Part shown: piece after piece, positions 21,009 through 46,892 of the stretch
How the letters are laid out: each line of letters opens with the position of its first letter
How positions within the stretch are numbered: the stretch's first letter is position 1
Assembly: GCA_029262455.1 (NCBI GenBank)
Contig: JAJCZJ010000020.1
Location: forward strand, 325,078-389,077
DNA from: Deltaproteobacteria bacterium
Lineage (GTDB): Bacteria > Desulfobacterota > Binatia > HRBIN30 > CADEER01
DNA: 64,000 bases
Direction: 5' to 3'
Notes under the pieces: model-generated
What the model was told of the DNA's origin: nothing
Database searches by the model: none
The model's input: the letters and a program-made list of their open reading frames with translations, nothing else
Translations under genes and position numbers: made by a program

Positions 21009-21114
21009 GCGAAACGACCTTCCGCCGTCCAGCGCAGGATCGGCTCTTGCGAGCCGAACAATCGCCGAGGCCCCCGACGCACGTAACCCCTGGAAGCGTG
21101 AAATCATCCAGACT

Positions 21115-21939
21115 ATGTTATCTCGGATGAGCCAAGGAGCGACATTCCCAACTCCCCCCCTCTCTGTGGTAATACCGGCCTTCGAGGAGTCCAGTCGCAT
21201 CGGCCCTCCACTCGCAAAAATTTGCCAGTATATTGCACAGAACCACCCGGGCACTGAGATCATCATCGTCGACGACGGCAGTCGCGACAGTACCTCGGAA
21301 ACGGTTGAGAAGCTCGCCCCGGATCTGCCATGCCCGGTCACCCTGTTGCGCTATGAGAAAAATCGCGGCAAGGGCTACGCGCTGCGCGTAGGTTTCGCGC
21401 ACAGCAGCGGGCAGCGCGTCCTGTTTACCGATTGCGATCTTTCGACGCCGATCGAGGAACTCGATCGGCTTCTCCCCGCGATCGAGGATGGCGCCGATGT
21501 GGTGATCGGCTCGCGGAAGATGACCGGTGCCGACATCGTCGTTCATCAAAAATGGTACCGCGAGCGGCTCGGCAAAGTCTTTACGTTTCTCGTCAACATC
21601 GCAATCGCCAACGTCAGCGACGCAACGTGCGGTTTCAAGCTCTTCGACGGTGACGTTGGCCGGAAACTCTTCGCACTCGGTCAAATCGACGACTGGAGTT
21701 TCGACGCCGAAATCCTCTTCCTAGCCAGCCGACAGAACCATCGCATCGTCGAGATTCCCGTAACCTGGCGCGATGCCGAGGGCACAAAAGTCCGCCTTGG
21801 CCGCGACGCGCTCGCGGCCCTGACTGGGCTGATGCGCATTCGATGGCTGGCGCTGCGCGGCGTCTATCGGGAGGCTGCTTCTCCGAGCCTGGACTCCTCC
21901 GTCGAAGTCAAGATGCTGCCTGACCGGCTCATATCGTGA
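21115..21939 (+). CDS. GT2 polyprenyl-phosphate glycosyltransferase (GtrB/CsbB/DPM1-like)
   Basis: Start refined to MLSRMSQGATFPTPPLSVVIPAFEES. Motifs IIVDDGSRD, YEKNRGKGYAL, DCDLSTP (DxD) and DDWSFDAEILFLA match dolichyl/undecaprenyl-phosphate sugar synthases. Confidence 0.65.
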   Translation: MLSRMSQGATFPTPPLSVVIPAFEESSRIGPPLAKICQYIAQNHPGTEIIIVDDGSRDSTSETVEKLAPDLPCPVTLLRYEKNRGKGYALRVGFAHSSGQRVLFTDCDLSTPIEELDRLLPAIEDGADVVIGSRKMTGADIVVHQKWYRERLGKVFTFLVNIAIANVSDATCGFKLFDGDVGRKLFALGQIDDWSFDAEILFLASRQNHRIVEIPVTWRDAEGTKVRLGRDALAALTGLMRIRWLALRGVYREAASPSLDSSVEVKMLPDRLIS

Positions 21940-24940: not shown

Positions 24941-27472
24941 TCAAAGTCCGATCACGTGCGTAATGGCGGGAATGGGCTTCGCCAAGGCCGGCAGGCGGAT
25001 CCCAATGTGGACCGTCGCCAACTCGCCTGTCGTTCCGGGAGCGAAACGCGGCTGCACCTCGACACACTTGCCGTTTCGAATCGGACGCGGCGCCGACGCC
25101 GGCTTCTTGCCGTCGAGGAGGAACTTGACGCCGGCCTCCAACATCGCCTGGCCGCACTTCTTCTTCGAACAACACACCGCAACAAATCCCAAGCGCATCT
25201 GCGGCATCGAGAACGTCAGCCAGCCTGCCTGCTGCGAAGCGCGTGTCACCAGCCCCGCGCACGCTGCGGGGTGCCGGCACTCGGGCATGCTGCGTTCGTT
25301 GTCGGGAATGTAGCGCCCGCCCTCCTCCGCCTTCCATCGTGTCCAACCCGCGTCCGAAGTTTGCGCAAGAGCCCGGTGCGGATTCTTCTCAGCCATCGCA
25401 TCGAGGCGCGCGAAGTGCTGTTCTCCAAACGTCGGCACTTCGTAGTTGGTACACCGCGGCGGTTCAGAAACCGCACACCACTCCGCCGGGCAAGCCAGCG
25501 GCTTGGGCAGGACCGAGGCCGACGGCTGACGGGGACGCTTCGGCCAGCGCACAGTCGGATAAGGCTCAGCAGAAACTCGACCCAACGCCAGGAGCAACGC
25601 GTCCGAAAGTTTGTACGCCAGCGCGTCGGCAGTCGTCTGAAACAGAAGCGGACCGGGATGCCAATTGCGGAACACGACGCCCAACGACTGGCGGCGCCGT
25701 TCAGACACGCCCGCTGCCTCCCCCTCCCGCGTCGTCTCGTGAAGCGTGTCACCAACCACACCCCACTCCTTGCCGGGGTAGCCAACGCTCTTGATGCCAC
25801 GCTCCATACAGAGCACATCCGCGCCAAACGGACCGTAGACATCAAGCAACACCTGGTCCTCGGCCGGCAGACGCGAGCAGTCATGCGTATAAAGAATCTG
25901 CGGCACCGGGCTGCGCTCCATCAGCAGCGACCAGCGATAGAATAGCTCGTGGTAGAGCTGGAGATCTTCCGCGGAGCTGCCGGCCTCGAAATAGGTCCAC
26001 GAGTAGTGCGTCATGTCGACGTCGTCGCCCACCAGCGTGCGCAAACACCAAACCTGGTTATCGAACGAGTCGCCGCAATCCCCACCCTGGCCGGTGTTCC
26101 GCACTTCAAACTCGACGCCGGCGGTATTCCAGACCGGAGCCATCAGGCGTTCGAGCTGGAGCTGGTAAGAATCGTAGTGACAGTTGTCGAAACCCGCGGT
26201 CACCGAGCTTCCGATCGTGCCGATGACGAAGCGGTCTCGCCAAACCAGGGCCCGCGCAAGCTTGTCAGCCAAGAAGTCGATTCCTTGCTGGTAGCGGCGG
26301 TCGTTTGGTTGCAAATACCAAGTCTTACGCAACACATCGGGACCACCGTAATAGTCCTCGAGCATCGAGCGCATCTTCTCCACCTCGGCCCGGATTACGG
26401 CATAGCGGGCGCCCTCTGCGTCGGAATCGCCGGCACCGCCTCCTTGTCGCAGCGAGAGTTTCTCGCGAACTGCCGGAACAGCGATCAGCTCCCGCCAAAA
26501 CGCACGCGCAAAGCGCTCGCCACTGTCGCGATTCAGGTGTGAGCCGTCGCTCGTTGCCAAGTCCGCGACGTCGGGCAAAACGACCGGAACCCCGAGAGCA
26601 TCGCCCAAATGAGGAAGATGGCCGGTCTGGGTTTGCGCGTAGGGAGTGAGAGTCACCACCATGAGAGCACCGCGCGATCTCAGTTCACTCTGGAGTTCTC
26701 GCGCTGCCGGCACCACTCGGTCGTAGTTCCGGTCCTCCCGAGTCCAGCCAACCGCATAACTCGCAGCCGGCTCAACTGCGGGTCGCCACCAACCAGTTCG
26801 CGAAGACCGATAGATGACCCATTGCGAAGCGATCTCATCGCCAAACCAATCCAGCTTCGGCACAATGGTGTGAAGCCAACGCTGCAAGCCCCACCGAGCC
26901 CGGGTCTCGATCCATAGCTTGTGGGCCTGCCACCAAGTCAACTGCATCGCCGCGACCGCACGATCCGACACTCGATCGCCGAAGAAGTGCGGCCCGCCGG
27001 CGACGACCACCACCTTCGGTCGCAGATCATGTCGACGGATCAGCTCCAGGGCAAAACCCAGCCCTTCCGAGTGCCCCATGCCGAGAGAAAAGACTCTTGA
27101 CCCCATCACCTCAGCGGCAGGCACTATACCGTCCTCACGCAGACCGAGCGGCATGCGCGAATTACCGATGAAGAGAACATCGGCCCGGCGCGCGTTTGAA
27201 ACCGAGTCTCCGATGTCGTGAAACAGCGCGACATGACTCAGTTCATCACCAACCGAATACGTGAAGAACGCGTCGTCCCCCGGCACCTCGAACGACGGCA
27301 TCCACTGCATCCGGGCCTGGCGCCCATCGGGCAAGGACAACTTCGGTAAGAGCAATGCCGTCAGCACAAAAGAAGAAAGAAAAAGAAGAACCGCGGATGA
27401 ACGCTGATCAACGCTGATGCGCCGCGGGAAGCCACGGCTGACATCGGACGATCTGCGTTCACCTGCGTTCAT
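24941..27472 (-). CDS. Large periplasmic partner of MBOAT with two SGNH/GDSL-hydrolase-like regions (AlgJ/AlgX/PatB-like O-acetyltransferase component)
   Basis: ORF 24941..27571 trimmed to Met 34 (MNAGERR...) so that it does not overlap the MBOAT stop at 27498. N-terminal TM segment. FIGNSRMPLG and TIGSSVTAGFDNCHY blocks resemble SGNH block I. Immediately downstream of the MBOAT on the same strand. Confidence 0.45.
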   Translation of the reverse strand: MNAGERRSSDVSRGFPRRISVDQRSSAVLLFLSSFVLTALLLPKLSLPDGRQARMQWMPSFEVPGDDAFFTYSVGDELSHVALFHDIGDSVSNARRADVLFIGNSRMPLGLREDGIVPAAEVMGSRVFSLGMGHSEGLGFALELIRRHDLRPKVVVVAGGPHFFGDRVSDRAVAAMQLTWWQAHKLWIETRARWGLQRWLHTIVPKLDWFGDEIASQWVIYRSSRTGWWRPAVEPAASYAVGWTREDRNYDRVVPAARELQSELRSRGALMVVTLTPYAQTQTGHLPHLGDALGVPVVLPDVADLATSDGSHLNRDSGERFARAFWRELIAVPAVREKLSLRQGGGAGDSDAEGARYAVIRAEVEKMRSMLEDYYGGPDVLRKTWYLQPNDRRYQQGIDFLADKLARALVWRDRFVIGTIGSSVTAGFDNCHYDSYQLQLERLMAPVWNTAGVEFEVRNTGQGGDCGDSFDNQVWCLRTLVGDDVDMTHYSWTYFEAGSSAEDLQLYHELFYRWSLLMERSPVPQILYTHDCSRLPAEDQVLLDVYGPFGADVLCMERGIKSVGYPGKEWGVVGDTLHETTREGEAAGVSERRRQSLGVVFRNWHPGPLLFQTTADALAYKLSDALLLALGRVSAEPYPTVRWPKRPRQPSASVLPKPLACPAEWCAVSEPPRCTNYEVPTFGEQHFARLDAMAEKNPHRALAQTSDAGWTRWKAEEGGRYIPDNERSMPECRHPAACAGLVTRASQQAGWLTFSMPQMRLGFVAVCCSKKKCGQAMLEAGVKFLLDGKKPASAPRPIRNGKCVEVQPRFAPGTTGELATVHIGIRLPALAKPIPAITHVIGL

Positions 27473-27497
27473 CTGCGGTTCAAATCCCTTGCTCGGC

Positions 27498-28907
27498 TCA
27501 AAACTGGAAGTAAATGAACTGCTGTTCCGTCGTGTACAGCGCAAGGACCGCCGCCAACATGGCACCGGCATAGATCGGCATCTCGAAGCGCTTCATTCCG
27601 AGTCCCGAGCTCCGGATCATTGCGGACCGCAAGTGAAGCGCCACGACCGGAGCGACGAAATACCAACCGAGTACTGTCAGATCGTCTAGGGAGCCAAGCC
27701 CACCACCAACCAACGAGACGATCCCCGCCACTGCATTGCCGACAACTCGCGTGCTCTGCGATAGATCCTCGGCGCGGAACAGGCCCATGCTCAGGATCCA
27801 CGTCACTTGCACGACGAGATACCAGCCCATCGAGGCCAGACGTCCCTGAGGTCCGCGCGAGAAACCCAAGGTCCGCTCGATCGCGAGCGCCAGCCCGTGC
27901 AACGCCCCCCACATCACGAAGGTCCAACTCGCACCATGCCAAAGTCCAGCGATCACCATGACCGCTGTGACGTTCACCAACGTGCGAGCTCGTCCGTGCC
28001 GGTTCCCCCCCAACGGGATGTACAGGTAGTCGCGGAACCAACGCGAGAGCGTGATGTGCCAACGACGCCAGAAATCGCTGAAGGTTGCCGCGATGTAGGG
28101 AGCGTCAAAATTGATCGGCAAGCGAAAGCCAAGCTGATAGGCAAGCCCGCGCGCAATGTCGGTATATCCCGCGAAGTCACAGAACAGCTGGCAGGAGAAA
28201 AAGGCGAGCATCGAGAGAGCCAGCAATCCGCCACCGGTTTCCGACGCGGCGCTCTCCCAATGCGTATCGACGACGCGTCCGAGGTTGTCAGCGACGACGA
28301 CCTTGAGAAACAGGCCGCGAACGATCAGGTAGGCGCCTTCGAAGAAGACTCTACCTCTGAAACCACGGTCGCGTTCCAACTGATAGAGAAAATCCCGCGC
28401 TCGAACGATCGGGCCCGCGACGAGCTGCGGAAAGAAGGCGATATAGCAGGCGAGTCGGACAAAGCTTTTCTCAGCCGGGATGTCGCCGCGGTAAACGTCG
28501 ATCGTGTAGCTCATCGACTGAAACGTATAGAACGAGATCCCAATCGGGAGGACAATCTCCGGATCCACAAACTGCCAAAGGCCCGAGGTCGCAATGTTCT
28601 GCGCCACAAAGCCACCGTACTTGAAGTAGCCGAGCAGCCCCAGATTGAGCAGCAGAGAAAGCGAAAGAATGCCCTTGCGCCGTGCCGTAGCCGACCCTGG
28701 CGCAGCGGCAATCACGCGGGCAGCGAAATAGTCGACACACGTGCTGAAGAGAATGAGGGCGAAGTACTTGGGGACGTGCCAGGAATAAAACGCCCAGCTC
28801 AGCAACAAGAGCCCGAAGACGTACGATCGGTTCGATCGGCGCGTCGCACCGCGCAGCGCCAACGCCAAAAAGAACAGGAACAAGAAAGAGACAGAAAGAA
28901 AGCTCAC
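27498..28907 (-). CDS. MBOAT family membrane-bound O-acyltransferase (AlgI/DltB/PatA-like)
   Basis: 469 aa, multi-TM. Conserved GISFYTFQ, FWRRWHITLSRWFRDYLYIPLGGNR and the His in WHGASW. Confidence 0.75.
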   Translation of the reverse strand: MSFLSVSFLFLFFLALALRGATRRSNRSYVFGLLLLSWAFYSWHVPKYFALILFSTCVDYFAARVIAAAPGSATARRKGILSLSLLLNLGLLGYFKYGGFVAQNIATSGLWQFVDPEIVLPIGISFYTFQSMSYTIDVYRGDIPAEKSFVRLACYIAFFPQLVAGPIVRARDFLYQLERDRGFRGRVFFEGAYLIVRGLFLKVVVADNLGRVVDTHWESAASETGGGLLALSMLAFFSCQLFCDFAGYTDIARGLAYQLGFRLPINFDAPYIAATFSDFWRRWHITLSRWFRDYLYIPLGGNRHGRARTLVNVTAVMVIAGLWHGASWTFVMWGALHGLALAIERTLGFSRGPQGRLASMGWYLVVQVTWILSMGLFRAEDLSQSTRVVGNAVAGIVSLVGGGLGSLDDLTVLGWYFVAPVVALHLRSAMIRSSGLGMKRFEMPIYAGAMLAAVLALYTTEQQFIYFQF

Positions 28908-29405: not shown

Positions 29406-30590
29406 ATGCCGAAAGAAGAGATCGAGGTCGAGGTTCGGGTTCGGCTGCGCGGAGGGCATTCCTACGATCTCACCCTATCATCCAACTCCGCTCTTCTGCG
29501 CGACTTGATCACGACGCTCGGCGGGTCGAGAAACTCGGTCCAGCCCCGACTCTTCCAGCTACCCCTCGACGGCGGCCAAACCTCCGCAACATTCGCCAGC
29601 GATCAGATATCAGCGATCGACACCCGTCCGCCACTCGACTGGAACACCATCACAACTGGTACGGAAGAGCGGTCCGCAAAAAGCCTCGGCGATGGTCCGC
29701 CTCTCGTCCTACGCGGCGCCCGCAACATTACACGCCAGCCATCCTACGAGGCAGCAGAGCGACGAGCGCGGCGGCTGATGGAACCGTTCGTGGCGCATCG
29801 ACAAGCCCGCCGTGCCGCACTGAAGAGCACTTGCGACGAGCTCGGCGGAAACACCTTCGTCGTCTCCCCCTTCAACCAAGGCTTCGTCCCGCTACTGCGC
29901 AACTGGGCCGCATCCTGTGATCGTTCCGGCATCGACTGCCGCGCCAGGACGGTACTGTTTCCGACCGACAACGGCGCCGACACTGCAGCACGCGAGCTCG
30001 GATTCGCAACCCTCTTCGACGGCGTCTCGTTTGACGGTGCCCCGCGCGACGCTATCAAAGTCTACGGGGACGCCCACTTTGCCGATTGTGTCTTCGCCAA
30101 GCTCGGCGCAGCAATCGACATGCTCGCTCTCGGCTACGACATCCTACTCCAGGATATGGATCTCGTCTGGTTCAAAGACCCGCTCCCCGGACTCAAAACT
30201 CGAGCGATGGCCGACGATCTGGACTTACAGTTCATGCGCGACATGAATCCGCGCTTCCAGCCGCTGTACTACAACTCCGGCTTCGTATTTATGCGCAACA
30301 ACGAATTCACCCGCCAAACCTGGAACACCATCTTCGACGCCTTTGCGGCGGTCGTGTTCTACCGCTCCGATCAAACCGTCGTGAACCAGGTCGTCGACTG
30401 CTACAAAGAGCGAGGATTGCGAGCCGCCCGTCTTCCAGATCGCTACGTAGATGGACAACTGCTGATCCGGGCCCAAACAAAACGCCGGCCTCTACCGCCA
30501 GATTCGATCGTGGCTCACGTCAACTGGACCGGAAACCTTGCCGAGAAGATCGCTCGGCTCAAAGCACTCGAACTGTGGTTCATCGACTGA
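29406..30590 (+). CDS. Novel ~80-aa N-terminal domain fused to a nucleotide-diphospho-sugar transferase (Nucleotid_trans/GT77-like) domain
   Basis: Start taken at MPKEEIEVEV (internal Met of ORF 29367..30590; weak RBS, start uncertain). C-terminal domain has LLQDMDLVWFKDP (the DxD...W motif of the Nucleotid_trans family). The N-terminal 80 aa are homologous to the N-terminus of the 36641 protein and to an internal segment of the 41978 protein. Confidence 0.5.
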   Translation: MPKEEIEVEVRVRLRGGHSYDLTLSSNSALLRDLITTLGGSRNSVQPRLFQLPLDGGQTSATFASDQISAIDTRPPLDWNTITTGTEERSAKSLGDGPPLVLRGARNITRQPSYEAAERRARRLMEPFVAHRQARRAALKSTCDELGGNTFVVSPFNQGFVPLLRNWAASCDRSGIDCRARTVLFPTDNGADTAARELGFATLFDGVSFDGAPRDAIKVYGDAHFADCVFAKLGAAIDMLALGYDILLQDMDLVWFKDPLPGLKTRAMADDLDLQFMRDMNPRFQPLYYNSGFVFMRNNEFTRQTWNTIFDAFAAVVFYRSDQTVVNQVVDCYKERGLRAARLPDRYVDGQLLIRAQTKRRPLPPDSIVAHVNWTGNLAEKIARLKALELWFID

Positions 30591-30673
30591 TCGATGCAAA
30601 TCACTTGCCGTGTCACAAGTTTTCCCCTTTTAAGCTTGACAGGAAGTCAGCGAACGTCGAGACTGCCTCCCGG

Positions 30674-31942
30674 ATGCCGACATTTGTTGGCGACACCTTA
30701 CCGGAGGCGCTTCGAGCCTTGGACTGCTCAAAATCCATCGAAACTCGTGTCCTGCCGCGCGCAGTGGCCTTCGGTCGCTTGCTTCTCGCTATCGCGGCGG
30801 CACTTGCCGTGGTGACAGCTCCGCATAGGGCGCCGGCAGCCCAGATCAAGTTCACGGGATTTGCCCAAATCAACGGCGCCCCGAGCGGACCGTTCGCAGC
30901 ATTCACAATGAATGAGGTCGTCGATATGACGATCACGATCGACGAGACTACGGCCGATTCGAATGGCGCCGGCGGCGCCGGATCATACAGCGATCCGACC
31001 TCGACCGCATTGTTCGAGGGACAGACCTCCGTGCAGATGGTCACTTTCACCGGCTTCGGCTTCGAACTCCTCGATTCGACGCGACTCGACCCGGCCAACG
31101 GCCTCGTCTCATCGAGCCCGAGCGCGGCGTACGTCGAGGACTGGGACCTGACCAACCTGTCGCCGATTTCGAACGTCGACGACCTTCCGACCATCATTGC
31201 CGAGTTGCCCAATGTGAACATTGGAACCGTCAGCGCCAACTTTTCGATACAACAACTGCCCGCCGGCCCGACCACGCTCTTCCTCGGGCTCAAGCCAACC
31301 GTCACGGTCACCGACTTTTGCGGCAACGGCATCGTCGAGGCCCCGGAAGCGTGTGACGATCCGGTGTGTTGCAACCCGACCTGCACCGCAATCATAGCGA
31401 ACGGAACTGAATGCCGCGCTTCAGCCGGCGTCTGTGATGTGGCCGAGACCTGCAGCAACGGCGCATGCCCCGTCGACGGCTTCGCCTCGATCGGCACCGT
31501 GTGCAACCCGTCATTGGGCGTCTGTGATCCAGAGGAAGTGTGCAGCGGCTCGAGCGCGGAATGCCCGCCGGACACGCTGACTCAGTTCACCTGTGGCACG
31601 ATCTGCGGCGCCCCGGTAGACGAGTGCGACGTTGCCGACATCTGCGTCTCCGGCAACGTCGATTGCCCACCGATGGGGACAATGTGCACACCGACACCGG
31701 TTCCGACTCCGACGCCCACGCCCGTTCCCGAAAATGGGTCCGGGGACGGGGCTTGCAGCGACGGTCTCGACAACGACAACGACAACCTCATCGACTGCGA
31801 CGACCCTGATTGCCTCGACGTCGAGGCATGCGAAACCGTGCACGCACCGACGCTCTCGCCAGGTGGATTGACGATCACCGTGCTCATCCTCGCCCTCATC
31901 GGCTTGTTGGCGATGGGGCGGGCAGTGCTCCGGAAGAACTGA
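30674..31942 (+). CDS. Secreted Cys-rich repeat protein (CGNG...ECDD myxo-type/disintegrin-like repeats) with PT linker and C-terminal TM plus basic tail (possible sorting signal)
   Basis: Internal ATG of ORF 30086..31942; the true start may be a nearer GTG. Repeats CGNGIVEAPEACDD, CRASAGVCDVAETCSNGACPVDGF and CNPSLGVCDPEEVCSGSSAECPPD, a TPTPVPTPTPTPVP linker, and a tail APTLSPGGLTITVLILALIGLLAMGRAVLRKN. Confidence 0.5.
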   Translation: MPTFVGDTLPEALRALDCSKSIETRVLPRAVAFGRLLLAIAAALAVVTAPHRAPAAQIKFTGFAQINGAPSGPFAAFTMNEVVDMTITIDETTADSNGAGGAGSYSDPTSTALFEGQTSVQMVTFTGFGFELLDSTRLDPANGLVSSSPSAAYVEDWDLTNLSPISNVDDLPTIIAELPNVNIGTVSANFSIQQLPAGPTTLFLGLKPTVTVTDFCGNGIVEAPEACDDPVCCNPTCTAIIANGTECRASAGVCDVAETCSNGACPVDGFASIGTVCNPSLGVCDPEEVCSGSSAECPPDTLTQFTCGTICGAPVDECDVADICVSGNVDCPPMGTMCTPTPVPTPTPTPVPENGSGDGACSDGLDNDNDNLIDCDDPDCLDVEACETVHAPTLSPGGLTITVLILALIGLLAMGRAVLRKN

Positions 31943-31962: not shown

Positions 31963-32469
31963 ATGAGCGACTCCAAAAAGACAAGAAAGCAGCTAATCGA
32001 AGAACTCGAACAACTTCGTGGTCAAGTCGCGCAGCGACAGCAGTCGCAGTCGGACAACAGTGCACCGGCGCTTGCCGGCGACGTTTCACGACGCACCGCG
32101 CTAAAGGTCGCCTGGACCGCGCCGGTCATTTTGGCAATCCCTCTCCAGGCCGATCGCTCTGGCGCCCAACCTCCGGTCGGAACGGTGGCCCCGGGCTGTC
32201 CCACCATGACCCCGACCAACGCGGCCCCTCCGACTAGCTCGCCGACCTTGTTCCCAACGACCGCTGAGCCGACGATTTCGCCGACTCAACCAGTCCCGAC
32301 CACCAGGTTGCCAACGTCCAGTCCCACGAACGACCCGACATTGCGTCCGACCACCAGCCCGACGATCCCTGCCCCGACGGCTATGCCGACGGCGAGGCCG
32401 ACCACCAGCCCGACGATCCCTGCTCCGACGCTTTCCCCGACCCCTGGTTTCCCGACGCTTTCCCCGTAA
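31963..32469 (+). CDS. Small exported Pro/Thr/Ser-rich protein, paralog A (coiled-coil N-region plus SRRTALK Tat-like motif)
   Basis: Internal Met of ORF 31810..32469: MSDSKKTRKQLIEELEQLRGQVAQRQ...DVSRRTALKVAWTAPVILAIPLQ followed by PTTSPTIPAPT-type repeats. A paralogous N-terminus is found at 45413..45892 on the opposite strand. Confidence 0.5.
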   Translation: MSDSKKTRKQLIEELEQLRGQVAQRQQSQSDNSAPALAGDVSRRTALKVAWTAPVILAIPLQADRSGAQPPVGTVAPGCPTMTPTNAAPPTSSPTLFPTTAEPTISPTQPVPTTRLPTSSPTNDPTLRPTTSPTIPAPTAMPTARPTTSPTIPAPTLSPTPGFPTLSP

Positions 32470-32611
32470 TCATCGGCGGTCAGCCCGCAATTCGGTTGAG
32501 AAACCGCCGTCGCTTTCTTCAGAGGACTTTCATCGTCCCCGCCCAATCGTGTCGAACACCATACCGGGCCTCATCCGCGTCAGCGCAAGCACCGTTCCGA
32601 AAAGCTAGCAA

Positions 32612-33976
32612 ATGTCGTCAGGAAACAGCGTAGAAACGCCGCCTACCAACTCTGGAGACTCCCCACGAGCACGGGGTGCGGCGGCTCGGCGGGTACGTCC
32701 GCGGCAGCGGGGCGGGCTCGAGACTTTCGAAGTACACAACGAAATCGTCGTGCTTCCCGGCGAGGGGGACCGCGTTTACGCGCTGAACGAGTCCGGTAAG
32801 GAGATCTTCGGCCTCTGCGACGGTCGCCACACCCTAGAGGCAATGGTCGACCAACTGGCGTCGAGGTACGACGCGCCTGACGTCGCGATCATGGGCGACG
32901 TGTCCGCAGCGATATTCGACCTCCACGGCCTCGGGCTGGTCGATATTCCTCCACCGGCTGACGCAGCTGCATCGATCGAGCCGCAGACCTCGGTCAAGGC
33001 ACGACCCAACGTGCGTTTCGTCTTCGGCATAGAGGACGTGCCCTATTTCCACTGGCAGCTTGCCATCCTCTTCGAGTCGCTCGTCGGCCAATTGCCCGAC
33101 GGTTGGGACGTCACCGTCGTCGTTTGCAACGACGAAGCACCGATTTCCGACGAGCTCATGAAGATCGTTTCCGAGTACGGTGTTCGCATCATGACCGGCA
33201 CCAGTCTCGCCGATCGCCACAGTCTCGACTTCGCCGGCGGCGGTGATCGCTACGTTCCGATGAACCGAGTCGAAGCACTCAGCGTCATTCGGCAAATCGT
33301 CGAACCCGAAGACGTCGTTTGCCTTCTGGACACCGACGTCTTCCTGTACGGCAACCTTCAAGAACAACTCTTCCCGACCGGCAACGCAATGGCCCGCAAC
33401 TGGATCATCTCCGAAGATCGGTACTTCGCGTTCTCGACCAACAACGAACGAGGACTGTCGCTCCCGAAGCTGCTCGAAGCCCTGGGGTGCGAGCAGGAGT
33501 TCAAACCCGGTGGCGTAGCGGTCTTCTTGACGGGAGAGACGATCCAACGCGAGCGCGTCATCCCCGACATTTTCCGTTTCCTTCAGGTTCTGTTCCTGCT
33601 CGGGAAAATCGTCGACGCACCAGCGCACGGCGTTTGGGTCGCCGAAATGGCATGCTTCGCAATGGCCATGTACCCCAACGAAATCGACTACGAGCTTCTC
33701 GACATCCCGCAATTCGCCGTCCAGGAGCAGCATGCTGAAGTCGCCCCCGACGGTTCGTTCTTCCACTACTACACCGACATCAACGACGGCGGGGGATCAA
33801 ATGGTCCGTTTTTCGAATCGCAGTGGCATAAACAGTTATTTCACCAGTCCAACATGCTCCTCGAAGACTTCGACAGCTTCAGAGTGAACGCCAAAGGCCG
33901 CCTCGAGCAGCGCTTCTTCGAAATCGCCGACAAGGCGAGAAAGCGCCTTTACGGCATCGAACGCACGGGCAAGTAG
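32612..33976 (+). CDS. PqqD-like (RRE) domain fused to a DxD-containing putative glycosyltransferase domain
   Basis: Residues ~36-112 (FEVHNEIVVLPGEGDRVYALNESGKEIFGLCDGRHTLEAMVDQLASRYDAPDVAIMGDVSAAIFDLHGLGLVD) match the PqqD/RiPP-recognition-element pattern (LNETA..IWELCDG..T..EI...L...Y......DV..FL..L...GLI). The C-terminal domain has DTD and acidic motifs. Confidence 0.5.
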   Translation: MSSGNSVETPPTNSGDSPRARGAAARRVRPRQRGGLETFEVHNEIVVLPGEGDRVYALNESGKEIFGLCDGRHTLEAMVDQLASRYDAPDVAIMGDVSAAIFDLHGLGLVDIPPPADAAASIEPQTSVKARPNVRFVFGIEDVPYFHWQLAILFESLVGQLPDGWDVTVVVCNDEAPISDELMKIVSEYGVRIMTGTSLADRHSLDFAGGGDRYVPMNRVEALSVIRQIVEPEDVVCLLDTDVFLYGNLQEQLFPTGNAMARNWIISEDRYFAFSTNNERGLSLPKLLEALGCEQEFKPGGVAVFLTGETIQRERVIPDIFRFLQVLFLLGKIVDAPAHGVWVAEMACFAMAMYPNEIDYELLDIPQFAVQEQHAEVAPDGSFFHYYTDINDGGGSNGPFFESQWHKQLFHQSNMLLEDFDSFRVNAKGRLEQRFFEIADKARKRLYGIERTGK

Positions 33977-33980
33977 AGCC

Positions 33981-34598
33981 GTGTTGTCAATGTTCGATAC
34001 GCCCGCACACCTCGAGCAGCAGACGCGCGAGCAACAGGCCGCAGCCCGGTACTGCGGGCTCGGCTTCAAAAAGGCCACGCTGCCCTCCGAGGTCTTGCAA
34101 CGGTTGCGCCAACACCTGGAAACGAACAGCCGCCGATTCCGCGCCGAGGAGCCCATCGACTACCTCGTCAACCCGGACCCCGGGAAGATTCCGGCCCTTT
34201 ATTTCGAGGACAAAGAATTCAACGCCACCCTAAGTCGCGAGCTACAAGGATTGCACGAAGAGTGGGCCGGAAGGAGTCTGACCGAGTCCGCCTGCTACGG
34301 CATCCGCGTCTATCAACGCGGCAGCTTTCTCTACAACCACGTCGACCACACCGACACACACATCATCAGCTCTTCGATCTGCGTCGACCACCGCCTCGAC
34401 AAGCCGTGGCCCCTCTACGTCGAGGATATCGACGGCAATCCCCACCAGATCGATCTCGACCCTGGCGACATACTGTTCTACGAGGGAGCCCGCCTGCGAC
34501 ACGGCCGTGCCTATCCACTCGAGGGTGACTACTACGCATCCATTTTCGTCCACTATCGACCCGCAAATCTCTGGTCTTCGCGGCTCGTTGGCACCTAG
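33981..34598 (+). CDS. 2OG-Fe(II) oxygenase superfamily protein (PhyH/P4H-like)
   Basis: YNHVDHTD (HxD) followed by a distal H in LRHGR and a jelly-roll-like spacing. Alternative ATG start at 33990. Confidence 0.55.
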   Translation: MLSMFDTPAHLEQQTREQQAAARYCGLGFKKATLPSEVLQRLRQHLETNSRRFRAEEPIDYLVNPDPGKIPALYFEDKEFNATLSRELQGLHEEWAGRSLTESACYGIRVYQRGSFLYNHVDHTDTHIISSSICVDHRLDKPWPLYVEDIDGNPHQIDLDPGDILFYEGARLRHGRAYPLEGDYYASIFVHYRPANLWSSRLVGT

Positions 34599-34640: not shown

Positions 34641-36644
34641 GTGAGACATCTACTCTATACAAACTACCAGTCCGGTCAGTCGGGTTTGAGCAACGGCATC
34701 ATGTCGATCGAGCTGGGCGTGGTCCTCGCGTTCCTGACGAATCGGTTTCTCCTGCTCGATGGCAACATCTCCCCGCCGGCCAATATCGTGTCGTACGGCG
34801 ATCGAGTCGACAACAGCCAGCCGAGCCGCGTCACCGACCTGATCGACCTACCGGTCGCCTGGAGTGAGCCAGGAAGCGTCGACGTGTCCAAGTTGCCGTT
34901 CCTCGAATTGAGCGACGACCATCTGGGGAGTGCCGCGTTCTATGTCCCCGGCACCGTCGACATCCGATCCGCCGACGCGGAAGCGTTCGCCAACGGCAGG
35001 ACAGTGTGGCTCAACGCTGGCGGCTCGCTCGACGAGATCCCGGTGCTGCGAGTGTCCGAGGATCACAGCAAAGACAATCTTCGATACAATCTCAACTACT
35101 ACTCGTACTTCTTCTACCTCGACGACGAAACGCGTCGCTCCGTCTACCGCATGCTCGAGCGGATGCAACCAAAGCAGGACCTAGGGGAGCTGGCGAAGCG
35201 CGTCGCCGGCGATCTCGGAGCATTCAACGCGGTGCACTTGCGACGCGGTGACTTCAAGGTGACCTATGGAGTCACCACCCTCGACCGTCAACCTTGGGAA
35301 GCAATCGAGGCGCTCGAGCATCACTTCAAACGCGACGACACTCTGGTCTTCGTGACCGACGAGCGCGACGACCCGTTCTTCGACGAGATCAAGAAGGTCT
35401 ATACGCATCACGTATTCATCGATCACCACATCCTCGACGACTACGAGAAGGACTTCGCCGCATTGCAGCACCGCGACAGCATCGCCTTGGCCTATCTTTC
35501 CCAGCTCGTGGCGGCCGAATCCGCCGACTTCATTGGCACCATGACCAGCACGTTCACCGCCATCATCCAGCGCTACCGCGGCAATCGCGGCAAGGCCGAG
35601 AGTTTCAAGTACCTTTGGAACGAGCTCCCGGACGACGGCGATCGTCTCGAACGCGGCCGTCATCCGGTTAGTGAGTGCGTCCCGATGGACCGCGGCATGA
35701 TGGTCGAAGAGTCGTCGGGTCCGTACTCATGGAATCGCTACAACAAGAGGATCGCCGCCAACTGGATGCGCGAATGGCCCGAAAGTTTTCTGACCCAAGA
35801 GAGCCTCGAAACCGGCAAATTGACGACCGGGGCCAGCCCCGTTGCCCGCCCCATCGTTCTGGTTCGTCCCGAAAGGACGAAAGTCGAGGTCGCGTTCGAC
35901 GGCTTGAGCATCATTCTAAACTCGCAAGTGCCTCGCGTTGCGACCAAGCTGAGCGAAGCCTTCGAATCACGCCAAGCTGCGAGTCCAGCGAACGTCATCG
36001 GGGAGTTCGAGGTTGCTGAAGAAGACGGCGACTTCCGTCTTCTGCAACGCGGCCAGGAAATCGCCACCGCAGCAAGCTACGAGGAGTTGGCGCGCACGTT
36101 AAAACTCCGCATGGTGCCGATCTTTGTCGGTGCGCGCCGCCGGCACGTGTGGCTGGAAGCTTTTTCCTTCCGTAGAGCAGGCCATGCGCTGGTTCTCGCC
36201 GGCGACATGGGTCCTCCATCGGACTGGCTGCCGGACGCCATGTGCTCGAACGGCTGGGAGCTGCTGTGGGACGAGATCGTCCCGATCCGCCTGGAAGACT
36301 GTACCGTCACACCGTTCGGCCGCACGACCTGGCCGAAGGGCGCAGCCCTGCGCATCGACCGTACGCCCTGTCGCGTCAGCGGCCTGATCGTCACCAGCCG
36401 ACAAGTCCAGCGCCGCGACACCTTGACCGTCTTGTCCCCAGCCACCGGGGTGGCGGAGTTGATCGGCCGCTGCGTCGACTTCCGCACCGACCGCAAGCGG
36501 GCGGTAGAACGCCTGTGCAAGCTGGTCGAGAAACGAACCGTAGGCAGACTGTCCTTCAGCCGCGCCGAGACCGCTGTCGATCTCCTCACGCGCCCCTTCC
36601 TCGACGCGGAGCGTGAGTCCGCCCACGGTACAAAGTCTGCATGA
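34641..36644 (+). CDS. Fucosyltransferase-superfamily GT-B (O-FucT-like) domain plus ~250-aa C-terminal domain of unknown function
   Basis: N-terminal QSGLSNGIMSIELGVVLAFLTNRFLLL resembles the GGLxNQ block of O-FucT/POFUT-like GTs. HLRRGDF matches the H-x-R-R-G-D motif shared by GT11/GT23/GT65/GT68. The C-terminal region has no recognised motif. Confidence 0.45.
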   Translation: MRHLLYTNYQSGQSGLSNGIMSIELGVVLAFLTNRFLLLDGNISPPANIVSYGDRVDNSQPSRVTDLIDLPVAWSEPGSVDVSKLPFLELSDDHLGSAAFYVPGTVDIRSADAEAFANGRTVWLNAGGSLDEIPVLRVSEDHSKDNLRYNLNYYSYFFYLDDETRRSVYRMLERMQPKQDLGELAKRVAGDLGAFNAVHLRRGDFKVTYGVTTLDRQPWEAIEALEHHFKRDDTLVFVTDERDDPFFDEIKKVYTHHVFIDHHILDDYEKDFAALQHRDSIALAYLSQLVAAESADFIGTMTSTFTAIIQRYRGNRGKAESFKYLWNELPDDGDRLERGRHPVSECVPMDRGMMVEESSGPYSWNRYNKRIAANWMREWPESFLTQESLETGKLTTGASPVARPIVLVRPERTKVEVAFDGLSIILNSQVPRVATKLSEAFESRQAASPANVIGEFEVAEEDGDFRLLQRGQEIATAASYEELARTLKLRMVPIFVGARRRHVWLEAFSFRRAGHALVLAGDMGPPSDWLPDAMCSNGWELLWDEIVPIRLEDCTVTPFGRTTWPKGAALRIDRTPCRVSGLIVTSRQVQRRDTLTVLSPATGVAELIGRCVDFRTDRKRAVERLCKLVEKRTVGRLSFSRAETAVDLLTRPFLDAERESAHGTKSA

Positions 36645-37630
36645 CAGACCAAGCAACCGCACCGCGCCAGATCGACATCCGCATCTCCACCATCGGCGGG
36701 CACGAGTATCGGTTGAATCTCCGCGAAGACGCCGTCCATTTGCGCGACCTCTTTACTCGATTCGTCAACCGACCGGCGACTGGGGCTGTCCGAGCTCCTG
36801 AATTCATCCAACTGCCCCTCGACGGAGGCAACGCTTCCTGCACGATCGCCGTCGATCAGATTGTGTCGATCGTCACCACGCCACCAGTCGTCATCGAAGT
36901 GCAACAACCCGCCGTCGAGCCAAACGTAATTCCAGATGTGCCGGCAGTGGTCGCGCCACCCCAGATCCGGCGCGCACACTACACGGTGATCGACGACTTT
37001 CTCACCGTCGATGAGCACCGAGACATGCTGGCGTTGGCATTGAGCGAGAAGGACAGCTTCGAACCCGGTACGGTGCAGGGTGAACCGAGTCCACACCGAC
37101 GAAACAGCGTCATCATGAACTTCGCAGACTCGGCGCACGGAACACTGCTGACAAGTCGTCTGCTCGTTTGGTTTCCATTGATCGCAAAGGCGCTGAAGGA
37201 ACCACTGTTTCCGCTCAAGACGGTCGAGTCGCAACTGACCGCCGCCAACGACGGAGACTACTATAAGCCTCACCTCGATACCGACGGGAAGACCCCCGAT
37301 TTCCGGGTCATCGCGTGCGTCTACTATTTCTTCCGCGAGCCAAAAGGGTTCACGGGCGGCGACCTACGCCTCTATGATTCCATCGAAACAGGTGGCGAAA
37401 TCTGTCAGGCGGATTCCTTCCAAGACATTCGGCCGGCAAGCAATCGCTTGGTCGCATTCACCTGCGAGACCTTCCACGAGCTGCTCGCGACTCGCTGCCC
37501 GTCCAAGGATATCGAAGACAGTCGTTTTGCGGTGACCGCGTGGTTTCACCGCAGCGGCGCACCGGACCCCGACGCCAAGTTCGGTTGGGGACATTATCGT
37601 TGCGGCGAAGTTCCGGAGGCACTGCGGTGA
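36641..37630 (+). CDS. Novel ~80-aa N-terminal domain fused to a prolyl-4-hydroxylase-like 2OG-Fe(II) oxygenase
   Basis: C-terminal domain has YYKPHLDTD (HxD), GGDLRLY, NRLVAF..ETFHEL (second His) and RFAVTAWF (2OG-binding Arg), which is the P4H pattern. The N-terminus IDIRISTIGGHEYRLNL...LRDL...QLPLDGGNASCTIAVDQIVSIVTTPP is paralogous to the N-terminus of the 29406 protein. ATGA overlap with the upstream gene. Confidence 0.6.
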   Translation: MTDQATAPRQIDIRISTIGGHEYRLNLREDAVHLRDLFTRFVNRPATGAVRAPEFIQLPLDGGNASCTIAVDQIVSIVTTPPVVIEVQQPAVEPNVIPDVPAVVAPPQIRRAHYTVIDDFLTVDEHRDMLALALSEKDSFEPGTVQGEPSPHRRNSVIMNFADSAHGTLLTSRLLVWFPLIAKALKEPLFPLKTVESQLTAANDGDYYKPHLDTDGKTPDFRVIACVYYFFREPKGFTGGDLRLYDSIETGGEICQADSFQDIRPASNRLVAFTCETFHELLATRCPSKDIEDSRFAVTAWFHRSGAPDPDAKFGWGHYRCGEVPEALR

Positions 37631-37802: not shown

Positions 37803-38930
37803 ATGATCTTCACGGTTTTCGTCGCACCGGTCGAACCAACGCAACAGTGGCGTGCCGATCTCCTCGAATACTCATGGCGACGCATCAAGCAGAGCGGCGA
37901 ACTGATCCGGCTGGCGCCAACCGCCCCCGGACGCGCACCAGGTAGCAGAGGGAGAGTCGGGAGAACCGTCAAAACGTTCGACTGGAACCCCCACCCGTAC
38001 ACCCAGGACGTGTACGCCGGCTATCAGACAACCGCCGGCGTACTCGAGTGGTTGTTCAACGAGCCGGCCGAAGGAACAGTCCTTTTGCTGGATTCGAGCT
38101 GCATCCTACGCCACCCGGTTACAGCAGAGGTCGAACCAGGCCACGTGCGCGGGTCGTCGTGGCCGGAGATCCCACTTGGCACGGACGGCCCATTCGGCCT
38201 GCATGATGATCTGAAGTTTCTCGAATCCTATTGCGTCAACCGCAAGCTCCCCCTCGCTCCCGTGCGGATGCCGATTTTGATCCACACGGCGGACCTGCGA
38301 AAAATCGCGGCGCGCTGGCTCGAGCTTACGGCGTTGATTCGATCCCATGCCGTAGGCGTTCACGGAAAATACCTTCATGCAGATCGCGTCGCCTACACCG
38401 TCGCCGCCGCCGAATACCGCATCCTCCACACCCTTGACGACCTCGGCACTACGACGTCGGATACCGGCAAAGACGTTCCGATCGTCGACTACAGCACACC
38501 GATCAAGTCCAAACAGGGAGAGATCGTCTGGGACCGAAAGGTCTATCGACCATGGGAGGCAGTCTACACCGAAAATGCGCGCGCAGGCGCAGGCAGAGAC
38601 GTACTCGGGATCCTGAACGAGATGGTGACGCGCCGCGAATCGGGAGCCGAGCTTGCGGCAACACGTCCACAGCGGTGCTACGGGGTGCGGGAAGCACGAA
38701 TTCTCGACGACATTCATCTCGAAGTACCTGGGTGTGCCGACTTGATGTCGCTGAATCAATCCGCGGCTGCCATCTGGGAGCTGTGCAACGGCGAGAACAC
38801 ACTCGCCGAGATCGTCAGCGAGCTCGAGAGACAATTCGACGCGTCACGCGAAACCCTCATGACATCCGTCGAATCGACGGCGAGGGATTTGGAAAGCTCA
38901 GGTGCCATCGAGCTGGAGGAGCTGTTCTGA
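37803..38930 (+). CDS. Unassigned N-terminal (possibly glycosyltransferase) domain with C-terminal PqqD-like (RRE) domain
   Basis: C-terminal 83 aa ILDDIHLEVPGCADLMSLNQSAAAIWELCNGENTLAEIVSELERQFDASRETLMTSVESTARDLESSGAIELEE match the PqqD pattern. N-terminal ~290 aa begin MIFTVFVAPVEPTQQWRADLLEYSWRRIKQSG. Confidence 0.5.
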   Translation: MIFTVFVAPVEPTQQWRADLLEYSWRRIKQSGELIRLAPTAPGRAPGSRGRVGRTVKTFDWNPHPYTQDVYAGYQTTAGVLEWLFNEPAEGTVLLLDSSCILRHPVTAEVEPGHVRGSSWPEIPLGTDGPFGLHDDLKFLESYCVNRKLPLAPVRMPILIHTADLRKIAARWLELTALIRSHAVGVHGKYLHADRVAYTVAAAEYRILHTLDDLGTTTSDTGKDVPIVDYSTPIKSKQGEIVWDRKVYRPWEAVYTENARAGAGRDVLGILNEMVTRRESGAELAATRPQRCYGVREARILDDIHLEVPGCADLMSLNQSAAAIWELCNGENTLAEIVSELERQFDASRETLMTSVESTARDLESSGAIELEELF

Positions 38931-40156
38931 TGGCATCCAAAGCAAAACCAAGCGCCAAAAAGTCCGTGCCGACCACAAAAACAAAGCACGCAGCAAAACG
39001 TGCCAAAGCCTCGGCCAAGAAAACAGCCAAAGCGCCGCCCGGAAAAGCCACGACAGCACGGGCGAAGAAGACCACCAAGACTCCGGCCTCCAAGAGCCCC
39101 AAAACCCGGACCCAAAGGACCCGGGCCCAAAAGCCCCGGGCCCGCAAAGCCGCGCTCAAAGTATCGCAAACGGTGTCGCCCAAAGGATCGCAAACGACTT
39201 CGAAGACGGAGCGAACGACCCCATCGCCTCGCGCAAAGTCGCGGCAGGCCACAAAACAACCCCAGATCTTCGTGTCGATCGCCTCCTACCGCGACCAGTT
39301 TCTTCACTTCACCATCGAGTCGGTGCTCAAACAGGCGACGTACCCAGAACGGTTGACCTTCGGCCTCTGCTGGCAAGCCGACGACACCGAGCAACTCGAT
39401 CAATACCTGCACGATCCGCGTTTCCGCATTCGCAAGTACCCGTACTACGCGAGCCTCGGCTACGGTTGGGCAAGAGCCGAGATCCAAAAACTATACGCCG
39501 GCGAAGAGTACCATCTACTGATCGATTCTCACACGTATCTCGCCAAGGGGTGGGACGAGAATCTGATCGCGCAACTCGAGAGCAAGCCGGGCGAGAAGCC
39601 GCTACTGACGACCAGCTCACCCCCTTTCACCTTCGACAATGACGGCAACGTCGTAATCCCGTGGCAAGGGACCGAACACGACGGCGTGCCGCTGATGAAG
39701 TGCGCACGAATCCAACCGGCAGGGTGGGTCGACATCCAGATGTCCAATGAGCGCAAGTCCACCAAACATCAAACCACCGGATTGGTGTGCTGTAACTTTG
39801 TCTTCACGCACGGGGCTTGGATCCGCGAAGTGCCCGAGGATCCGGCGATGATCAACGCCGGCCACGAGTCAGCCCTTTCGGTTCGTACCTTCACCCACGG
39901 ATACGACATCTACCTGCCCGACGAAATTCAAATCTGGCACCTCGACTACAACAACTACCCGAACGGTGAGCGCAACAAGGTATGGGAAGCAAAGTCCGAC
40001 AGTTGGCAGTCTGAGGGCACCGAGATCATGCTGCGGCGGCTGCAAGCGCTGTTCTACAACCGCGGCGACCGCGCCTCGCTCGGCCGCTACGGACTCGGTC
40101 GATCCCGCACCGTAGCCGACTGGGCGGAGATCACCGGACTCGACCTCAGTGACTGA
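38930..40156 (+). CDS. GT60-like (Glyco_transf_GlcNAc / Skp1-Hyp and mucin-Thr GlcNAc-transferase family) enzyme with ~110-aa Lys/Ala/Thr-rich histone-H1-like N-terminal tail
   Basis: ATG overlaps the upstream stop (TGATG). Tail MASKAKPSAKKSVPTTKTKHAAKRAKASAKKTAKAPPGK... Catalytic region starts IFVSIASYRDQFLHFTIESVLKQATYPERLTFGLCWQADD, which I recognise as the N-terminal signature of the GT60 family from memory (needs HMM confirmation). Paralogous to 46893..47900. Confidence 0.45.
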   Translation: MASKAKPSAKKSVPTTKTKHAAKRAKASAKKTAKAPPGKATTARAKKTTKTPASKSPKTRTQRTRAQKPRARKAALKVSQTVSPKGSQTTSKTERTTPSPRAKSRQATKQPQIFVSIASYRDQFLHFTIESVLKQATYPERLTFGLCWQADDTEQLDQYLHDPRFRIRKYPYYASLGYGWARAEIQKLYAGEEYHLLIDSHTYLAKGWDENLIAQLESKPGEKPLLTTSSPPFTFDNDGNVVIPWQGTEHDGVPLMKCARIQPAGWVDIQMSNERKSTKHQTTGLVCCNFVFTHGAWIREVPEDPAMINAGHESALSVRTFTHGYDIYLPDEIQIWHLDYNNYPNGERNKVWEAKSDSWQSEGTEIMLRRLQALFYNRGDRASLGRYGLGRSRTVADWAEITGLDLSD

Positions 40157-46759: not shown

Positions 46760-46878
46760 GTGATTGGTGACTGGTGATTCGTGACTGGTGACTGGTGATT
46801 CGTGACTGGTGACTGGTGATTCGTGACTGGTGACTGGTGATTCGTGACTGGTGACTGGTGACTGGTGACTGGTGATTG
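46760..46878. repeat. 17 tandem copies of a heptanucleotide (GTGACTG/GTGATTC; 21-nt super-unit x4) between the GT60-like gene and the sulfotransferase
   Basis: Read directly: gtgattg gtgactg gtgattc gtgactg gtgactg gtgattc ... gtgactg gtgattg. On the minus strand this is CAGTCAC/GAATCAC. In the reading frame of ORF 46049..46900 it encodes the heptad TSHESPV five or more times. Confidence 0.8.
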
Positions 46879-46892
46879 GTTGGGCAAAAGTT

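Follow-up and report, generated by a model that had tools for sequence, protein, structure and literature searches.

A glycosyltransferase fused to a peptide-recognition domain raises the question of what it recognizes, and which substrate is glycosylated as a result. We address this question for the open reading frame (ORF) at 32612-33976 in a stretch of 64,000 nt (the window) of contig JAJCZJ010000020.1, from the Deltaproteobacteria bacterium assembly GCA_029262455.1 of the Binatia. Its product, here called RRE-GT, joins a RiPP recognition element (RRE; RiPP, ribosomally made peptide that is modified post-translationally) of the PqqD family to a glycosyltransferase (GT) domain. The gene belongs to a cassette that recurs in distant bacteria together with a small gene for a repeat protein and with homologues of eukaryotic enzymes that hydroxylate and glycosylate proline. 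We consider it probable that the cassette, guided by a leader, hydroxylates the prolines of a mucin- or extensin-like protein and O-glycosylates this protein in the cytoplasm before its export, with RRE-GT acting as a docking enzyme.

A PqqD-family RRE fused to a glycosyltransferase

RRE-GT and its parts are as follows.

32612-33976 (+): RRE-glycosyltransferase fusion protein (RRE-GT), 454 aa
32720-32944 (+): PqqD-type RRE domain, residues 37-111
33011-33952 (+): GT-A glycosyltransferase domain with GT8-like fold, residues 134-447
33329-33337 (+): DxD motif, D240-T-D242
33764-33766 (+): invariant H385

A first-pass annotation of the window had proposed a PqqD-like domain at 32717-32947 (residues 36-112), and the peptide that it quoted is present there. 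Residues 44-110 cover the complete Pfam profile PF05402 (PqqD; positions 1-67 of 67) with an E-value of 7.6e-14, and the 52.2 bits obtained exceed the gathering threshold (23.4), which places the domain in the PqqD/RRE superfamily. Of the two profiles that had been named as checks, PF05402 was thus positive, and TIGR03859 (true PqqD, NCBIfam) was negative, with 35.7 bits against a cutoff of 46. The NCBIfam models for lasso, GeoRSP and SCM PqqD proteins likewise remain under their cutoffs, indicating that the domain is a PqqD-family RRE and not PqqD itself; by these scores the protein is classed neither as PqqD proper nor as a lasso-RRE equivalog, and no pqq genes are found in its neighbourhood, so that it is not a bona fide PqqD.

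In an AlphaFold2 (AF2) model computed with 46 homologues as input (pLDDT 85, pTM 0.77), the RRE has three strands (37-41, 44-48, 56-58) ahead of three helices (60-68, 75-83, 90-106). This is the winged-helix beta3-alpha3 fold expected of an RRE, and it superposes over the whole domain on the lasso RREs TbiB1 and TfuB1 at 1.7-1.8 Å. A disordered linker at 118-126 connects it to the C-terminal domain. More than 180 full-length homologues share at least 48% identity with RRE-GT; the RRE is highly conserved among them, and they are annotated as 'PqqD family' or hypothetical and as nothing else. The 454-aa start at 32612 is backed by an NCBI-called form of the protein (P0276) and by homologue lengths of 430-470 aa. 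Only the weak ribosome-binding site in front of this ATG would speak for a chance similarity or a mis-called ORF; the strength of the PF05402 match, the number of full-length homologues, the confident two-domain model and the RRE superposition refute this explanation, to which we assign a practically negligible probability.

The annotation had also described the fusion partner as a DxD-type transferase, which agrees with our model of residues 134-447 as an alpha/beta domain with a GT-A fold. D240 and D242 of the DxD motif are invariant across 46 RRE-GT sequences, as are L238 and H385. The domain superposes on GT-A structures of the GT8 clan, namely the catalytic domain of UGGT (15.0), glycogenin (14.9), the Skp1 alpha-galactosyltransferase Gat1 (14.2) and GlyE (13.5), with further matches to WbbM and LARGE1, and its Rossmann-like fold is closest to GT8/GT24 structures. 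Residues 130-454 give no Pfam GT match even at E≤10, so that the domain is not PF01501/GT8 by sequence, and a profile search with the GT domain against 1.84 billion representative proteins returned just 59 relatives, none of them named, of which a few lack an RRE or are joined to GT61 or GT25 domains. Judged by these searches, the GT domain is a small, sequence-isolated, uncharacterised GT-A family.

Small repeat proteins with a conserved leader as candidate substrates

Two genes of the window encode candidate substrates.

31963-32469 (+): candidate substrate (precursor 1), 168 aa, beginning 21 nt past the preceding stop
45413-45892 (-): candidate substrate (precursor 2), 159 aa, with a leader as in precursor 1 (ISRRSALKIAWVTPVILSVP)

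Precursor 1 comprises a leader helix (residues 6-20), the stretch S42-RRTALKVAWTAPVILAIPL-61 (nt 32086-32145) and a core rich in Pro-Thr (PT) repeats at about nt 32170-32466, the tail containing 29% Pro, 27% Thr and 20 PT dipeptides. Precursor 2 has a shorter P/T/A-rich core, followed by a C-terminal hydrophobic segment and a charged tail. We compared 47 loci in all (the genome scan itself gave 43), and a pattern search detected the small ORF in 32 of them, nearly always ending just upstream of RRE-GT (an exception is L015, with another position in the locus); four loci were added by a relaxed pattern.

Alignment of 26 leaders (precursor 1 of the window and 25 orthologues) revealed two conserved blocks, 'KTKEELLAEIEALR' and '(S/T)RRxxL..W(V)APV(I/V)L(S/T)xP'. 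E14, R43, R44, W51, P54 and V55 are invariant, and the RR..W..P block is 62% identical. In contrast, the region downstream of the leader is hypervariable in length (27-254 aa) and in repeat unit; it contains 21% Pro and 20% Thr, Thr follows 65% of the prolines, and Ala, Ser or Thr precedes most of them. The loci thereby show the architecture of a RiPP cluster, with a conserved leader, a variable core and adjacent RRE-bearing enzymes. None of the precursors matches a Pfam or NCBIfam family, and where a source names one of them, the label is hypothetical or uncharacterised.

We take the leader motif WxxPVxL to parallel the YxxPxL motif of lasso leaders, which is bound by the structures that best match the RRE of RRE-GT. 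According to the updated RRE-Finder study, the PqqD/FusE/McjB/StsC groups of RREs read a recognition sequence W/Y/LxxP/L/I (PMC12710340), which the invariant leader stretch W-x-x-P-V-(I/V)-L fits. Genomic context, that is, the small ORF upstream, a WxxPV leader conserved across phyla and a hypervariable PT core, strongly supports the proposed leader-guided protein glycosylation through a common RRE recognition mechanism.

The PqqD-like domains could instead serve enzyme-enzyme assembly or bind another ligand, with the small ORF encoding a co-regulated, secreted PT-rich protein that is recognised through its repeats. GT-domain relatives without an RRE or joined to other GTs are in favour of this explanation, and so is a different recurrent domain of about 80 aa, borne by the prolyl hydroxylase and two further enzymes described below, which might be the real docking module. 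We nevertheless consider it unlikely, since the RRE fold superposes on lasso RREs in their leader-bound state, the leader bears a recognition-type motif, and the leader has been conserved across phyla while the core has not.

Two further features of the precursors concern their C-termini. The spacer between precursor 1 and RRE-GT (32470-32611, 142 nt) aligns with the 3′ coding region of Binatia relatives (L005:3960-4210, L030:9850-10030), and the stop codon of precursor 1 lies about 25 codons short of the '...ALF(R/S)FDD' C-terminal motif of the closest of these. The early stop and the still alignable spacer suggest a recent truncation or decay of this motif in the present genome. In general, the C-termini are clade-specific (L001-L045; window 45413-45560): those of Gammaproteobacteria read 'IPVE(I/L)x(D/E)F(D/E)(I/V)(S/G)', those of Myxococcota 'PTLGMGAAPDSRP..G.(V/I)ALGSARA', and in those of Binatia, Nitrotoga and precursor 2 of the window a hydrophobic segment is combined with a basic cluster and an acidic tail, which recalls PEP-/IPTL-CTERM sorting signals or Tat (twin-arginine translocation) tail anchors.

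A cassette of fixed gene order in about eight phyla

RRE-GT is followed by these cassette genes and by an additional paralogue of the last of them.

33981-34598 (+): conserved 205-aa protein, cupin/2-oxoglutarate (2OG)-oxygenase-like by motif alone (invariant H120-V-D122 ... H174)
34641-36644 (+): 667-aa protein with a weakly O-fucosyltransferase-like N-terminal half and an HprK-related-kinase-like C-terminal segment with a degenerate-looking P-loop
36641-37630 (+): prolyl 4-hydroxylase (P4H)-like 2OG/Fe(II) oxygenase (PF13640, E 3.9e-15) whose N-terminus bears an additional domain of about 90 aa
37803-38930 (+): hydroxyproline O-arabinosyltransferase (HPAT)-family GT-A domain (residues 1-285) with a C-terminal RRE (residues 287-373, nt 38661-38921), here HPAT-RRE
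38930-40156 (+): Gnt1-like polypeptide GlcNAc-transferase (PF11397, E 2.1e-44) with an N-terminal extension (about 120 aa) rich in Lys, Ala and Thr
46893-47900 (-): second Gnt1-like GlcNAc-transferase paralogue (PF11397, E 1.1e-43)

Comparison of the window proteins with all 47 loci by tblastn, together with the gene tables, shows a fixed order of small ORF, RRE-GT, 205-aa protein, 667-aa protein, P4H, HPAT-RRE and Gnt1-like gene. RRE-GT is present in all 47 loci, the 205-aa protein in 46, the 667-aa protein in 44, P4H in 36, HPAT-RRE in 35 and the Gnt1-like gene in 41, usually with a second paralogue close by (paralogue in 41/47 loci); gaps in the cassette are mostly located at contig ends. 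The loci span about 8 phyla and come from Binatia, Gamma-, Beta- (Nitrotoga) and Alphaproteobacteria, Acidobacteriota, Myxococcota, Nitrospirales, Thermodesulfobacteriota and Spirochaetaceae, the closest relatives of RRE-GT (71-72% identity) being found in Binatia. Two cultured Gammaproteobacteria, Elongatibacter sediminis CH-27 and Luminiphilus syltensis NOR5-1B, carry the cassette, which makes the model directly testable.

Homologues of eukaryotic hydroxyproline-glycosylation enzymes

The only PDB sequence match of the P4H-like protein is 6T8M, which is PhyA (DdPhyA), the Skp1 prolyl 4-hydroxylase of Dictyostelium (PMC7864055). Its HxD...H...R signature is intact, with H211-x-D213, H279 and R295 invariant. 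HPAT-RRE is a protein of 375 aa whose N-terminal domain is confidently modelled as a GT-A fold (AF2 pLDDT 93.4), with GT6-type GT-A structures as Foldseek matches. PF23452 (Hydroxyproline O-arabinosyltransferase family) is matched by 32/46 members of the HPAT-RRE family, with a best E-value of 2.1e-9, and one member (P0172) exceeds the cutoff of 23.9 with 27.2 bits. The Gnt1-like protein, for which a PDB sequence search gave no match, adds a second homologue of Hyp-directed initiating GTs (HPAT/GT95 or Gnt1/GT60; Hyp, hydroxyproline). The presence of P4H, HPAT and Gnt1 homologues indicates a pathway that is probably directed at hydroxyproline or threonine. As the PF11397 family also includes Thr/Ser-directed enzymes (PMC8724618), Thr-linked glycans would be equally possible as Hyp-linked ones.

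The P4H, HPAT and Gnt1 homologues come from protein-directed families, which argues against a cassette that makes a polysaccharide or lipid-linked glycan of the exopolysaccharide or lipopolysaccharide type, with the PqqD matches as functionless relics. Envelope-glycan genes are indeed abundant in the window (three YfhO-like proteins, a GT2, an MBOAT protein and a nucleotide-diphosphate (NDP)-sugar epimerase), as such an explanation would have it; yet the RRE is highly conserved across more than 180 homologues and a precursor-like gene adjoins the cassette, and we regard this alternative as highly improbable.

The 205-aa protein is encoded directly 3′ of RRE-GT in 46/47 loci; it has neither a Pfam match nor a PDB sequence match and no similarity to the P4H by BLASTP. 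For the 667-aa protein, PF10250 (E 1.3e-5) is below and TIGR04352 (E 1.3e-6) far below cutoff, and a PDB sequence search found no match. The weak likeness to TIGR04352 (HprK-related kinase A) lies at residues 500-570 (window 36140-36350), and the Walker-A position reads 'AGDMGPPSD', so that the C-terminal part is probably a pseudo-kinase. The HprK-related kinase A family accompanies PqqD proteins in GeoRSP and SCM cassettes.

The N-terminal extension of the Gnt1-like protein in the window (38930-39290) is Lys/Ala/Thr/Pro-rich, histone-H1-like and absent in orthologues of 300-306 aa; a 15-nt tandem repeat lies within it at 39096-39143.

Further RRE fusions and a second recurrent domain

Beside RRE-GT and HPAT-RRE, the window encodes a third RRE protein and two more tailoring enzymes.

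40149-41942 (+): unknown N-terminal domain, RRE (nt about 41082-41312) and GT25-like C-terminus, 597 aa
41978-45385 (+): 1135-aa multidomain tailoring enzyme consisting of sulfotransferase, docking-like domain of about 80 aa, methyltransferase, GT92 and methyltransferase
29406-30590 (+): GT77-type nucleotide-diphospho-sugar transferase (PF03407, E 4.2e-15) with an N-terminal domain of about 80 aa as on P4H

In Pfam, PqqD is matched by residues 314-369 of HPAT-RRE (E 1.9e-13) and by residues 330-386 of the 597-aa protein (E 3.6e-11), whose C-terminus matches GT25 with an E-value of 0.0038 and whose N-terminal domain has no match in a PDB sequence search. With the RRE of RRE-GT, all three fusions predicted by the first-pass annotation, each to a different catalytic domain, are confirmed. 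The three RREs are about 28% identical pairwise, and hhalign aligns the RREs of the RRE-GT and HPAT-RRE families with 98.7% probability, including a common 'RPxRxG' pre-strand motif. Since this comparison aligned the RREs alone, the candidate assignment of the GT domain of RRE-GT as HPAT- or SGT1-like was dropped.

The third RRE fusion occurs as an accessory gene in 8/47 loci and the 1135-aa enzyme in 5 loci. On a TARA Oceans scaffold (L002 17036-21311), the third RRE is found inside a single 1837-aa protein together with a methyltransferase and GT92, which shows that the RRE is shuffled modularly among tailoring enzymes.

A second domain of 80-90 aa recurs at 29406-29680, 36641-36925 and about 42650-42940, i.e., on the GT77-like protein, on the P4H and inside the 1135-aa protein. 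Its copies are 27-38% identical, follow the pattern 'GGxYxLxL...L..L...QLPLDGG...T....I..I...PP' and match no Pfam family; the domain may be a second substrate-docking module. We also considered that the extra domain of the P4H might track the N-terminal helix of the leader, but no correlation was seen: the domain (about 90 aa) is kept in all loci, with or without the helix, and thus also in L011, L037, L039 and L043, where the helix is absent.

A putative Tat-like export signal within the leader

The leader motif (S/T)-R-R-x-Phi-L-(K) lines up with the Tat consensus, R43 and R44 being invariant and L47 conserved in at least 90% of the leaders. At least 13 uncharged residues come next, and after them a basic residue and an A-x-A-like site, which in most leaders take the form R..A(H/Q)A(Q); at pattern level, the leaders thus agree with a Tat signal. 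On this basis, export of the precursors by Tat seems plausible, with the chances about even. The cosubstrates 2OG, Fe2+ and NDP-sugars are cytoplasmic, and the sequences of the cassette enzymes show neither a signal peptide nor a hydrophobic N-terminus; modification ahead of export would therefore be the simplest reading.

The invariant WxxPV(I/V)L stretch falls within the presumed h-region, directly after (S/T)RRxxL. This position would also suit RREs that mainly act as hold-back ('proofreading') chaperones of a Tat-type signal, as TorD/DmsD do for cofactor enzymes, blocking export until modification is complete while the catalytic domains pick their substrate via the PT repeats. In bufferins, the signal peptide is dispensable for modification, yet the RRE-containing partner is required (PMC11626156), which would be in line with such a role. 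However, Tat-signal profiles do not match the leaders, and substrate recruitment is the simpler explanation for RREs that are covalently joined to three different catalytic domains. We therefore rate holding back as rather unlikely to be the main function of the RREs; the two roles do not exclude each other.

Proposed pathway

The data above establish the identities and folds of the domains, the conservation of catalytic motifs and of gene order, and the division of the small proteins into leader and core. In the scheme that we infer, including RRE-leader binding, acceptor residue, sugar, order of steps and export route, RRE-GT would be a soluble cytoplasmic two-domain enzyme whose RRE docks on the leader of the small protein(s) encoded at 31963-32469 and 45413-45892, most likely with the invariant W-x-x-P-V-(I/V)-L stretch as the contact. 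In this way, the hypervariable (A/S/T)-P-T repeats would be kept beside the Mn2+/DxD GT-A domain, which is GT8-like and probably retaining. The P4H would turn the prolines of P-T units into Hyp, the HPAT-like and Gnt1-like enzymes would start O-glycans on Hyp and/or Thr, and the GT8-like domain of RRE-GT would add or extend an O-linked sugar together with other GTs. Likely co-workers are the O-fucosyltransferase-like protein and, in this genome, further glycosyl-, sulfo- and methyltransferases. The predicted product, a mucin- or extensin-like protein heavily O-glycosylated on Hyp and/or Thr, would be exported, probably via its Tat-like segment of (S/T)RRxxL(K), h-region and AxA site, and the leader would be removed.

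Several observations weigh against this scheme. Neither Pfam nor the search of 1.84 billion proteins links the GT domain by sequence to any characterised GT family, and the lack of an RRE in some of its relatives suggests that docking is not obligatory for this GT fold. The HPAT-like copy of the window itself matches PF23452 with an E-value of 0.13, under the Pfam threshold. With 84-331 aa, the precursors exceed classical RiPP precursors in size, and the cassette encodes no leader protease. As for export, even at E≤10 the Tat-signal profiles PF10518/TIGR01409 match neither the window proteins nor any of 10 leaders, the distance of the RR pair from the start (28-56 residues in every leader except L011) is unusually long, and none of the sources that name the precursors annotates them as Tat substrates. 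On the whole, we judge leader-guided hydroxylation and glycosylation ahead of export to be probable.

If this reading is correct, RRE-guided tailoring would no longer end at small peptides but would include entire secreted glycoproteins, with glycosyltransferases and prolyl hydroxylases among the enzymes so guided. Bacteria of at least eight phyla would make Hyp- and/or Thr-glycosylated repeat proteins with homologues of enzymes supposed to be a plant and protist speciality, so that the origin of eukaryotic hydroxyproline glycosylation could be approached in a testable way. The analysis also defines a GT-A family that is new and isolated in sequence, a portable leader, WxxPVIL, with which glycosylation might be steered to designed substrates, and a possible connection of leader recognition with Tat export.

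Genomic surroundings of the cassette

The cassette is enclosed by a larger envelope-glycan island (16733-24116, 24941-28907 and 48116-49114), which contains three YfhO-like GT-C membrane proteins and a GT2, an MBOAT protein next to a protein of 876 aa, and an NDP-sugar epimerase also found with the cassette in 22/47 loci. The YfhO-like proteins and the GT2 could possibly provide an extracytoplasmic glycosylation step. Directly upstream of precursor 1, positions 30086-31942 (+) encode a Cys-rich repeat protein with weak disintegrin-like matches, whose end is formed by a 'PTPVPTPTPTPVP' stretch and a C-terminus of the form 'APTLSPGGL...TM...RKN', which resembles an IPTL-CTERM sorting signal; a Calx-beta/IPTL-CTERM protein is also encoded near the cassette of Elongatibacter (L001 4431-6029). 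A 21-nt tandem repeat at 46760-46880 (-), with 5.8 copies and 96% matches, encodes 'SPVTSHE' repeats at the N-terminus of a 283-aa sulfotransferase ORF.

Comparison with known systems

Among eukaryotic systems, the Skp1 Hyp-glycosylation pathway of protists comprises PhyA, Gnt1, AgtA/GT77 and Gat1/GT8 (PMC8724618). The bacterial system described here shares P4H, Gnt1-like and GT77-type families with the pathway of Dictyostelium and Toxoplasma. In contrast to Skp1, which is modified at a single Pro, its target would be a repeat protein with tens of potential sites, recognition apparently involves leader and RRE, and the product is apparently exported. Arabinosylation of plant extensins requires P4H, HPAT/GT95 as well as RRA and XEG113/GT77 (PMC7933510). 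The combination of P4H, HPAT-family and GT77-type enzymes with a Pro-rich repeat substrate is common to our cassette and to Hyp-arabinosylation of extensins and CLE peptides; the plant enzymes, however, are Golgi membrane proteins without RREs, and the plant sequon is Ser-Hyp3-5, whereas here it would be (A/S/T)-P-T.

From these parallels, a bolder proposition can be framed, which we put forward tentatively and consider more doubtful than the pathway itself: the cassette may be the first bacterial hydroxyproline-O-glycosylation system, in which GT-fused RREs read an extended Tat h-region and so tie the hydroxylation and multi-step glycosylation of extensin- or mucin-like PT-repeat proteins in the cytoplasm to quality control of their export, and it may represent a prokaryotic reservoir of the eukaryotic PhyA/Gnt1 (Skp1) and P4H/HPAT/GT77 (plant cell-wall) pathways.

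Among bacterial systems, bufferins likewise combine an N-terminal export signal with an RRE-containing partner that acts before export (PMC11626156; PMC12710340). They differ in having a Sec signal and MNIO chemistry on Cys, whereas we find a Tat-like signal with a long helical n-region and predict hydroxylation and glycosylation. The serine-rich repeat adhesins of Gram-positive bacteria are glycosylated in the cytoplasm on Ser/Thr acceptors (by GtfA/B, GlyE and others) and exported via the accessory SecA2/Y2 system; to our knowledge, their glycosylation involves no RRE or leader logic and no P4H. With the lasso RREs (TbiB1, TfuB1 and the N-terminal domain of McjB) and with PqqD, the RREs of the cassette have the winged-helix beta3-alpha3 fold and the Pfam family in common. 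In those systems, however, the RRE is joined to or stands beside a protease, cyclase or radical-SAM enzyme, whereas here it is joined to glycosyltransferases, its partner is a repeat protein of 84-331 aa, and no pyrroloquinoline quinone (PQQ) or lasso machinery is present.

The updated RRE-Finder study notes RRE-glycosyltransferase fusions to PF00535 (GT2) (PMC12710340); the GT domain of RRE-GT has no match in Pfam, and that study does not describe the cassette. In the literature library that we searched, which is not exhaustive, we found no description of the cassette, of its precursors or of bacterial HPAT homologues. RRE- and leader-guided modification as such is known, and what appears to be new here is its target, a repeat glycoprotein, and its use of eukaryote-type hydroxyproline-glycosylation enzymes.

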